DNA of 33,748 nt from a virus. Its lineage: Duplodnaviria; Heunggongvirae; Uroviricota; Caudoviricetes. Both the position numbers and the translations under genes were made by a program. The stretch lies in IMG/VR virus record IMGVR_UViG_2718218139_000002, one strand, 5' to 3'. Below are positions 16,890 to 19,419 of this stretch, one piece after another; the stretch's first letter is position 1, and each line of letters starts with the position of its first letter. The notes under the pieces are model-generated. The model made no database searches, was not told the origin of the DNA, and worked only from the letters and a program-made list of their open reading frames with translations.

Positions 16890-17351
16890 CCTATCGGAGC
16901 ATTAAGCATGGCTAACCAATTAGCAAAAGACCTTGAAATCATGTTCGAAAACTGCGTTGAAGGCTTTGAGGCCGCCTGCGTAGTTTCCCGTAACGCTAAA
17001 AAATTCCGTCCCGGTGATACAGCAATGCAGCGAGCAGGTGATGTTCTGTATCGTCCGCAGCATTACCACATGAACATTGAGGAAGGCCTCGACCTCAGCA
17101 GCAAAACACCAACAGCACTGGTTCAGCGCCTTGTTCCTTCAGTGTTCAAGGAGCCGAAAAACATTCTGTACACTCTGGATGCGCGTGAAATGCGTGACCC
17201 GGAACATAAAACTGAAGCTGGTCGCGCCGCAGGTATGCGCCTTGCTGCACAGATTGACTCTGACCTGATTTCCATGGTCACGCAGCGTGCTACTAACGTG
17301 ATCACAATGGCTGACTCAACCACTGGTTCACAGGGCCGTGATTTGTAGTGG

Positions 17352-18191
17352 TCAACAAAAACTGGCCACCGCTTTAGAGTTTTTCCAGTATCGGTTTTCC
17401 GATTCATTTGGTGGCAACCCACCGTTATATTCGTGCGGCCTGAGCGCGTTGTAATACCCAACGATATAGTCCGTTATTTCATGGGCAGCATCGCTGAAGT
17501 TCATGTAACCCGTCACCGGTATCCACTCGTTTTTCAGACTCCTGAAGAAGCGCTCCATCGGGCTGTTATCCCAGCAATTTCCTCGTCGACTCAGACTCTG
17601 TTTGATCTGGTAACGCCACAGTAACTGCCGGAACTGCCTGCTTGTATAGTGGCTGCCCTGATCGCTGTGGAACATTACCCCGGCTGGTTTACTGCGGATT
17701 TCCCAGGCCATTTTCAGCGCTTTGATGGTCAGTCTGCTGTCCGGAGAGAACGACATTGCCCAACCTACCGGTTTCCTTGCAAACAGGTCGAGAACAACGG
17801 CAAGGTATGCCCAACGTTTCCCCGTCCAGATGTACGTCACGTCGCCGCACCATACCTGATTTGGCTCTGTCACTGCGAACTGCCGCCCAAGGTGATTCGG
17901 GATAGTGACATGTTCACGACCACCTCGTTTATAACGGTGCGCAGGCTGCTGGCAACTGACCAGTCCCAGTTCTTTCATGAGCCTGCCGGCAAGCCAGCGC
18001 CCCATTCTGAAGCCTATCAGGGTTGCCATTGTGGCGATGCTTCTTGCCCCGGCAGAACCATGGCTGATGTTATGCAACTCAAGTACCTGACTGCGTAATA
18101 CAGCCCGTCTGCCGTCTGGTTTTTCAGGACGGTTTTTCCAGTATCTGTAGCTGCTGCGATGAACCCCGAACACATGGCAGAGTGTGACCAC
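17352..18191 (-). CDS. IS911 transposase OrfB (DDE domain), expressed as OrfAB by -1 frameshift
   Basis: IS3-family OrfB similarity (WCGDVTYIW...HSDQGSHY...[14 protein letters not shown]). Confidence 0.85.
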
Positions 18192-18217
18192 AGGATAATG
18201 CGCTCTGAGTTTCCCGA

Positions 18218-18520
18218 TTATCGAGAACTGTTCAGGGAGTCTGACATCAAGAGCGCGGTAGCCTTTTTTAATATTTCATTCTCCATTTCAATGCGTTGTA
18301 GCTTTTTCCTCAGCTCACGTATTTCGATTTGTTCTGGTGTTATCGGAGAGGCTTTTGGTGTTTTGCCCTGACGCTCATCACGCAGTTGTTTGACCCATCT
18401 TGTCATTGTGGAAAGGCCGATATCCATAGCTTTGGCGGCATCTGCCACCGTGTAGTTCTGGTCAACAACCAGTTGAGCGGATTCGCGTTTAAACTCTGCG
18501 CTGAAATTTCTTTTTTTCAT
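18218..18520 (-). CDS. IS911 transposase OrfA
   Basis: [58 protein letters not shown] matches IS911 OrfA as recalled; slippery A-run near its 3' end. Confidence 0.85.
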
Positions 18521-19419
18521 TGGAGCACCTGTGTTGTTCTGAGGTGAGCATATCACCTCTGTTCAGGTGGCCAAATTCAGTGTGCCACTACAATTTGTGG
18601 AACTGTGCGGCAGGTATTGATGCCACCATGACGGCGATTGGTGTACCTCAGGGTATCAACCGTCGCTCTTTCTGGAACCCCTTCAACTACAAAGACCTTG
18701 CTGGCGAGCTTGGTCACCGTGCCTATGCTCAGGGCGCAACCCTGACAGCATACGAAAAAGCGCAGATCCCTCCGGTTGCGTCATTCGATAGCTACAAGAC
18801 CGATATTTCTGGTCGTGTTCCGAAGGGTACAGCAACTTCCATTACGCTGGCAGCAGCACCTGCGCACAAGGTTGAAGCGAAAGATGCTAACGATATGCCA
18901 GTGGATAACCGACAGGGGACCATTACGGTATCTGCTGAAGGTTTGCAGGTTGGCGATGCGTTTACCATCGCAGGGGTGAATTCCGTACACCAGATCACCA
19001 AAGATACCACCGGGCAGCCGCAGGTATTCCGCGTTCTGGCAGTTAGCGGAACGACAGTAACTATCTCCCCGAAAATTCTGCCGCCTGACAACGCGGATGT
19101 CGCCAGCCGTCCATATGCAAACGTTGATGCTAATGCGGCAAGTAACGCAGCAATCACCATTCTCAACAAAAATGCCGCACCGGCTAACCTGTTCTGGGCT
19201 GATGGTTCTGTTGAACTGATGTACGGCAAACTGGCGTTCCCGACTGGTCAGGGTCCACAGGTAATGACAGCAACCACCGAGCAGGGCGCTACGCTGATCA
19301 TGTCTTACGCCTTCGACCACATCAAAGGCGTAACCACTGCGCGTTTCACCACTCTGTACGGTTGCTCTGTACTGGTTCCTGAATATACGGGCATCGTTAT
19401 TGCCGGGCAGTAATTTAGG

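Follow-up and report, generated by a model that had tools for sequence, protein, structure and literature searches.

Organization of the interrupted coat locus

The DNA analyzed here, 33,748 nucleotides of IMG/VR virus record IMGVR_UViG_2718218139_000002 (the whole stretch is called the window), is a P22-like (Lederbergvirus) prophage whose coat, or major capsid, gene is divided by an insertion sequence (IS). The 5′ part of the gene, on the plus strand at 16908–17343, consists of codons 1–145 and the first base of codon 146, and the 3′ part, on the same strand at 18596–19413, runs from the last two bases of codon 146 to the stop. Between them lies a complete IS3-family element of 1,249 bp at 17344–18592, on the minus strand and antisense to the coat gene, with TG..CA termini (TGTAGTGG...CCACTACA) and an ATT triplet on either side (17341–17343 and 18593–18595). 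The insertion interrupts codon 146 after its first base. We are highly confident in the overall reading of this arrangement, in which an intact IS911-related element of the IS3 family transposed into the coat gene of a P22-like prophage.

The junctions were read directly from the sequence, sliced by script. The left flank ends with ...GGGCCGTGATT at 17343, the element opens with TGTAGTGGTCAACAAAAACTGGCCACC and closes with GGTGGCCAAATTCAGTGTGCCACTACA, and the right flank continues from 18593 as ATTTGTGGAACTG. Phages Kapi1 and Sf101 and three Escherichia coli (E. coli) prophages carry the empty site GATTTGTGG, with a single ATT, in the context ...GGGCCG(T/C)GATTTGTGGAACTG.... This comparison does not depend on the 1/64 probability that two triplets match by chance, and it shows that the ATT pair is a true 3-bp target duplication made on insertion. 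Its length agrees with the 3–4 bp direct target duplications of the IS3 family and with the 3–4 bp spacing stated for IS911 (PMC2909936).

The left flank ends with T and the element starts with T, which in principle would allow the boundaries to be placed one base away; this ambiguity is settled because other copies of the same element share identical tips. Copies in E. coli that are 99.9–100% identical begin and end in exactly the same way (TGTAGTGGCACA...TTGACCACTACA). Three-base repeats flank three of the four other copies examined (GGT and GAC at identical copies, TTC at a 99.9% identical one), with none at the fourth. The IS911 copy of phage Sf6 has the tips TGAAGTGG...CCACTTCA and a GTT repeat.

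Reconstruction of the coat gene

Excision in silico of 17344–18592 together with one ATT (1,252 bp), a check proposed in a preliminary description of this DNA, restores a continuous open reading frame (ORF) of 1,254 nt and 417 codons with a terminal stop only. The same description had named a failure to align continuously with P22-like coat proteins as the result that would count against it; the 417-aa product instead aligns by tblastn in one piece over residues 1–417 with Kapi1 and Huey (99.3% for both), and at full length with Sf101 (98.6%), JEP4 (98.1%) and CUS-3 (94.5%). Pfam P22_CoatProtein (PF11651) matches residues 1–416 against profile positions 1–423 (E = 1e-75), PDB entry 8skg (CUS-3 coat) matches residues 2–417 (E = 1e-264), and the P22 coat structure 2xyy is recovered at E = 2e-38. 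The I-domain (residues ~222–337), held by the 3′ part, is marked by a match of 6mnt to residues 222–337. It is the rebuilt ORF only that the profile and the solved structures place in the P22-like coat family; the gene as it stands is not a single uninterrupted ORF, being split at codon 146.

After excision, window positions 16000–20500 come to 3,249 nt and align without gaps to five uninterrupted relatives, each exactly 3,249 nt long, with collinearity from scaffold to gp10. The coat genes of Kapi1, Huey, Sf101 and CUS-3 have the same length and the same gene order (scaffold-coat-gp4-gp10) as the rebuilt window, from which they differ in not being split after residue 146. Between the rebuilt gene and that of Kapi1 there are 13 synonymous and three non-synonymous codon differences. 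The insertion is therefore clean, with no other loss or rearrangement at the site and with no disabling mutation in the element or in either coat half.

As it stands, the 5′ fragment is an ORF of 146 aa at 16908–17348. The first TG of the element recreates the native Leu146 codon (TTG), and the next triplet contributed by the element is the TAG stop at 17346–17348; the preliminary description, which placed codons 1–145 before the insertion, was essentially right, the extra residue being completed by the IS. The exact 146-aa truncated product is present in public assemblies. The 3′ fragment comprises 271 codons and lacks its own start codon. A TTG inside the element (18520) opens an ORF that reads in frame into the 3′ part, and we see no reason for its expression. 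This locus cannot yield capsid protein, and by comparison with known coat structures neither fragment would be expected to form an HK97-type fold alone.

Structure and coding content of the element

The element is delimited by full-length copies in E. coli that are 100% identical. Its right inverted repeat, proximal to orfB, lies at 17344–17379 (plus strand; TGTAGTGGTCAACAAAAACTGGCCACCGCTTTAGAG) and is identical at 33 of 36 positions to the published IS911 right inverted repeat oligonucleotide from the Chandler laboratory (TGAAGTGGTCAACAAAAACTGGCCACCGAGTTAGAG; PMC2909936). The left inverted repeat, proximal to orfA, lies at 18557–18592 (minus strand; TGTAGTGGCACACTGAATTTGGCCACCTGAACAGAG), and an IS911B remnant of E. 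coli K-12 differs from it only at tip position 3. The two repeats are imperfect, matching by direct comparison at 24 of their first 36 positions, and were too imperfect to be reported by an inverted-repeat finder that uses ungapped extension.

All coding features of the element lie on the minus strand. The orfA gene (18218–18520) encodes 100 aa with a HTH_Tnp_1 domain (Pfam, E = 6e-14), and the orfB frame (17352–18263) encodes the rve, or DDE integrase, core, matched over the whole Pfam profile (E = 1.6e-31). An A AAA AAG heptamer preceded by GGAG, read from the sequence at 18263–18269, forms a slippery site for −1 programmed frameshifting, and joining the two frames in this way gives a stop-free OrfAB of 389 aa. 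Identical RefSeq copies are annotated with the same joined coding sequence (CDS). With the NCBIfam model for IS3 family transposases (NF033516), the score is 376.6 bits, where the cut-off is 160. The features of the IS3 family are all found: two overlapping ORFs with a frameshift motif, a DDE core with a helix-turn-helix, and imperfect inverted repeats ending in TG...CA. The statement that the element and both coat halves are intact is borne out by the stop-free OrfAB and by coat halves free of stops and frameshifts.

The fold downstream of the heptamer is weakly better than that of shuffled sequence (z = −1.5). No Rfam RNA family was found in the IS or the coat region, and a promoter and terminator scan returned fewer matches than shuffled sequence, which says nothing on polarity. 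The exact orfA protein occurs on at least 1,000 contigs.

The route by which the element would have moved can be sketched by analogy with published work on IS911, in which OrfAB, produced by frameshifting, joins one end of the element to the other, a circle with ends 3–4 bp apart is generated by replication, and the circle integrates (PMC2909936). Here, OrfAB transposase would be made by −1 ribosomal frameshifting at A AAA AAG and would generate a copied-out circle in which the two ends abut. The circle would then be pasted into a staggered 3-bp cut, the fill-in of which would give the ATT duplication. The intact ORFs, the slippery site, the ends and the 3-bp duplication all fit this pathway.

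Relationship to IS911

The preliminary description had named the element IS911. It is of the IS911 type, but comparison with the reference-type IS911 of phage Sf6, whose right inverted repeat equals the published oligonucleotide at 36 of 36 positions, suggests that it is a close relative rather than IS911 strictly defined. At the DNA level it is 90.3% identical to the Sf6 element overall, with the identity unevenly spread, at 92–100% over the first 500 nt (100% at aligned positions 301–500, the frameshift region) and 84–89% across orfB (~85% for orfB taken together), where the OrfB part is 91.4% identical as protein. Both tips read TGT, with T in place of A at position 3 of the TGA found in IS911. 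The IS911B remnants of E. coli K-12 show the same pattern, with identity falling from 97.6% in the orfA part to 86.6% in that of orfB. On this basis the element looks like a natural mosaic, in which the regulatory 5′ part of IS911 may be combined with a diverged catalytic part and changed tips.

Under the ISfinder convention, elements below ~95% DNA identity are distinct, and the value of 90.3% lies under that mark. A case can still be made for calling it IS911 proper and treating it as an isoform of the reference: the organization is the same, the length equals that of the Sf6 copy, the frameshift region is identical, and the right inverted repeat and orfA part stay close to published IS911 and to the K-12 remnant. 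Given the overall divergence from Sf6, the lower identity of orfB in both DNA and protein, the TGT tips at both ends and the convention just cited, we regard this as unlikely, at roughly one chance in a handful. RefSeq naming (‘IS3 family’ against ‘IS3-like element IS911 family’) was weighed as an argument against the name IS911 and was dropped, since it may reflect the naming of fused CDSs. The label ‘IS911-like’ is preferable to ‘IS911’, and the mosaic may be a small point for IS taxonomy.

Copies of the element and related insertions

This variant of the element is common, with matches of at least 99% in 683 E. coli records. Full-length copies that are 100% identical are annotated in E. coli as ‘IS3 family transposase, programmed frameshift’ with a joined CDS and the same IS coordinates. 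One of them, at 2883733–2884981 of NZ_CP027103.1 (transposase WP_085948123.1), is identical over all 1,249 bp and has the same tips as the window copy. The identical copies occupy other sites, and the coat gene is hit in none of 5,426 complete E. coli genomes.

Another identical copy, at 877335–878583 of NZ_CP148363.1, has no 3-bp duplication (flanks CTA and AAC), a sign that copies may have recombined there or that neighboring sequence was deleted.

The nearest known parallel is the IS911 of phage Sf6, inserted in gene 54 (ninG). It shares with the window element the length of 1,249 bp and the layout of orfA, A AAA AAG and orfB; both lie in a P22-like phage genome, antisense to rightward genes (nin and late), and both duplicated 3 bp of target (GTT in Sf6, ATT here). 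The consequences differ. Sf6 carries and tolerates its IS911 in a nin gene (PMC5630979), which is dispensable, and the phage is viable, whereas the window element destroys the essential coat gene of a prophage that also lacks terminase and portal. A second parallel is provided by the homologous prophage of E. coli O111:H- 11128 (2630930–2635995), in which two copies of IS1203, also of the IS3 family, lie in or next to head genes. One splits the scaffold gene and the other lies just downstream of an intact coat gene, so that this prophage differs from the window both in the IS and in the sites hit.

The preliminary description also stated that the element shares its terminal sequence with a degenerate remnant at 10586–10609. 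The similarity is genuine, although it is subterminal: these 24 bases are identical to IS positions 13–36, numbering from the left end, whereas the outer 12 bp, including the tip itself, are absent. Directly upstream, 10266–10581 is 72% identical to the orfA region, and the remnant therefore derives from a more distantly related element or is a composite. A 551-bp piece containing it (10090–10640) is 97–99% identical in the Stx1-converting phages SH2026Stx1 and AU6Stx1 of E. coli O157:H7. Because the whole piece is conserved in these phages, the remnant is an old, inherited fossil that travels with a nin-region module, unrelated to the copy that splits coat and no sign of local activity on the part of that copy. 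Adjoining the remnant in the nin region, a 590-aa ORF on the minus strand (8317–10089) matches phrog_9230 (function unknown) over its full length and has no Pfam match.

Occurrence of the insertion

The insertion is present in a small number of independent records, with at least two NCBI assemblies among them. Assembly GCA_003015365.1, which is 100% identical to window positions 6908–27348, carries the junctions, as do contigs NNXI01000113 and NNXI01000058 of GCA_002486255.1. The left junction also occurs in an IMG/VR contig with 99.98% identity to the window and in a Logan contig (SRR35123413) recorded in 19 samples. The right junction is found in the two NCBI assemblies, and the bases are the same everywhere. 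Among 120 IMG/VR contigs with this coat gene, 119 have the empty site, and the occupied one belongs to the same lineage as the window; none of the 5,426 complete E. coli genomes searched carries the insertion. The exact left junction was not found in bacterial contigs sampled at one genome per species, as expected if no member of the lineage serves as a species representative. All occurrences belong to a single lineage, made up of the two NCBI assemblies, the IMG/VR contig and the Logan contig. Since neither the IS junction nor the terminase and portal deletion junction occurs in any complete E. coli genome searched, this lineage might be a Shigella or a Shigella-like E. coli.

These records bear on whether the junctions could be artefacts of assembly, with a multi-copy IS mis-joined into an intact coat gene. 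Insertion sequences are classic sites of misassembly, and three short-read contigs break at this very element. A mis-join would not be expected to leave a flawless 3-bp duplication or a region that is exactly collinear with its relatives once the element is removed, nor to recur with identical junction bases in separate NCBI assemblies, a Logan contig and an IMG/VR contig, and we give an artefact almost no credence.

A different question is whether the site is special, that is, whether insertion sequences prefer it or hit it repeatedly, or whether its disruption was selected (for example, by silencing a costly prophage), rather than the product of a one-off neutral event. Contigs of at least three other coat alleles (L019–L025) end at nt 431–433 of the gene, ..GGGCCGTG, 3 nt upstream of the insertion, and L019 continues with TGAC instead of the native ATTT. 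The IS1203 copies of the O111:H- 11128 prophage, in the scaffold gene and just after coat, point in the same direction. Yet contig ends can arise from branching of the assembly graph, and the TGAC continuation of L019 could reflect either such branching or another insertion nearby. Neither the TGAC continuation nor this IS at this site occurs in any complete E. coli genome, and the near-universal empty site among the IMG/VR contigs, with the occupied one from the same lineage, likewise speaks for a single event. A preferred or selected site is accordingly very improbable in our estimation, and the more specific proposal that codons 144–146 are a recurrent target of different mobile elements across E. 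coli and Shigella lineages, or that their disruption is selected, seems a shade less probable still. Were the disruption selected, one conceivable reason would be that the 146-aa coat stub disturbs the assembly of capsids by superinfecting relatives. A general hotspot is disfavored by the wider surveys, and a one-off insertion remains the preferred reading.

A 15-mer scan for junctions of the L019 type returned chance matches in unrelated taxa only and is uninformative. Targeting of the IS911 type to sequence resembling an inverted repeat was also considered and rejected: by hand count, the flank after the duplication agrees with the left inverted repeat of the element at 9 of 27 positions, and TGT.G at its start alone matches.

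Prophage context and age of the insertion

The integrase gene of the prophage (31347–32540, minus strand) lies at the right end of the window, followed by tRNA-Arg(CCT) at 32666–32740 and a yfdC-like transporter gene, and the prophage is integrated at tRNA-Arg(CCT), beside the yfdC-like gene.

Several other lesions accompany the coat insertion. A copy of IS600 (14211–15474; 1,264 bp, TGAGGTAG..CACCTCA) lies inside the endolysin gene without a target duplication (flanks GAG and CAG), and relative to Sf101, 333 bp of endolysin and Rz sequence are gone beside it; the site is that of an IS-adjacent deletion. The preliminary description had contrasted the coat event with this one as a simple insertion, and the contrast stands. 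An E. coli match (H80) was considered as sharing the IS600 insertion and was set aside, its site being different. Separate from the IS600 event, a junction at 15650, within an ORF at 15459–15905, fuses an Rz fragment to the portal C-terminus. The corresponding deletion of ~5.4 kb (Sf101 37086 to 3786) has removed both terminase genes and ~90% of portal. This junction shows no obvious microhomology and is shared by no complete E. coli genome searched. The IS600 boundary is present in every coat-junction contig that reaches far enough upstream.

Downstream of coat, a 62-codon gene (‘virion structural protein’ gp06 in Sf101) carries a window-specific GAA-to-TAA change at codon 28 (19536), ~120 nt past the coat stop, which leaves a small ORF at 19457–19540. 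This stretch of 210 nt holds four of the 17 substitutions that are specific to the window within 3.2 kb. With IS600 and its deletion, the loss of terminase and portal, and this nonsense mutation, the prophage is dead several times over.

The preliminary description called the coat insertion probably recent. In favor of this, identical copies of the IS exist elsewhere, the two ATT triplets still match perfectly, neither half of the coat gene has acquired a stop or a frameshift, the insertion is found in a single lineage, and substitutions specific to the window affect 3 of 1,254 coat positions. A recent insertion is plausible from these comparisons, but ‘recent’ is meant in a relative sense, the small gene close by having already acquired a nonsense mutation specific to the window.

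No observation speaks against the insertion itself, and the overall reading has two weaker points. First, two of the three window-specific coat changes (Y16C and N329, unseen in the relatives compared) are non-synonymous and, with the adjacent nonsense mutation, indicate that some time under relaxed selection has passed. That relaxation could date from the terminase and portal deletion instead of the coat insertion. Second, the transposition mechanism proposed for the window copy is drawn from the IS911 literature and would hold by analogy.

Coat residue 16 (window position 16954) is Cys in the window and Tyr in Kapi1, Sf101, CUS-3 and three E. coli prophages; Y16C may be a drift mutation that arose after the coat gene stopped mattering.

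Elsewhere in the window, on the minus strand at 28179–28245, Rfam identifies sar, the antisense RNA by which P22 regulates ant (71.6 bits, with a gathering threshold of 43), overlapping the start of the antirepressor gene, and because of this match the immI region looks intact. Toward the left of the window, two ORFs of 825 and 330 aa (391–2868 and 2865–3857) overlap by 4 nt and have no match in Pfam, PADLOC or PHROGs.

Implications

IS3-family insertions in P22-like genomes are well documented, and the O111:H- 11128 prophage shows this mode of decay to be commonplace. The coat gene split by a complete element with TG..CA ends and flanking ATT triplets, as the preliminary description had it, represents a familiar, well-understood kind of prophage decay, and its significance extends little beyond annotation. 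In annotation, the two coat fragments are best joined into a single pseudogene with a mobile element inside it, and the prophage is best marked as defective. The insertion can serve as a clone-specific marker of its lineage.

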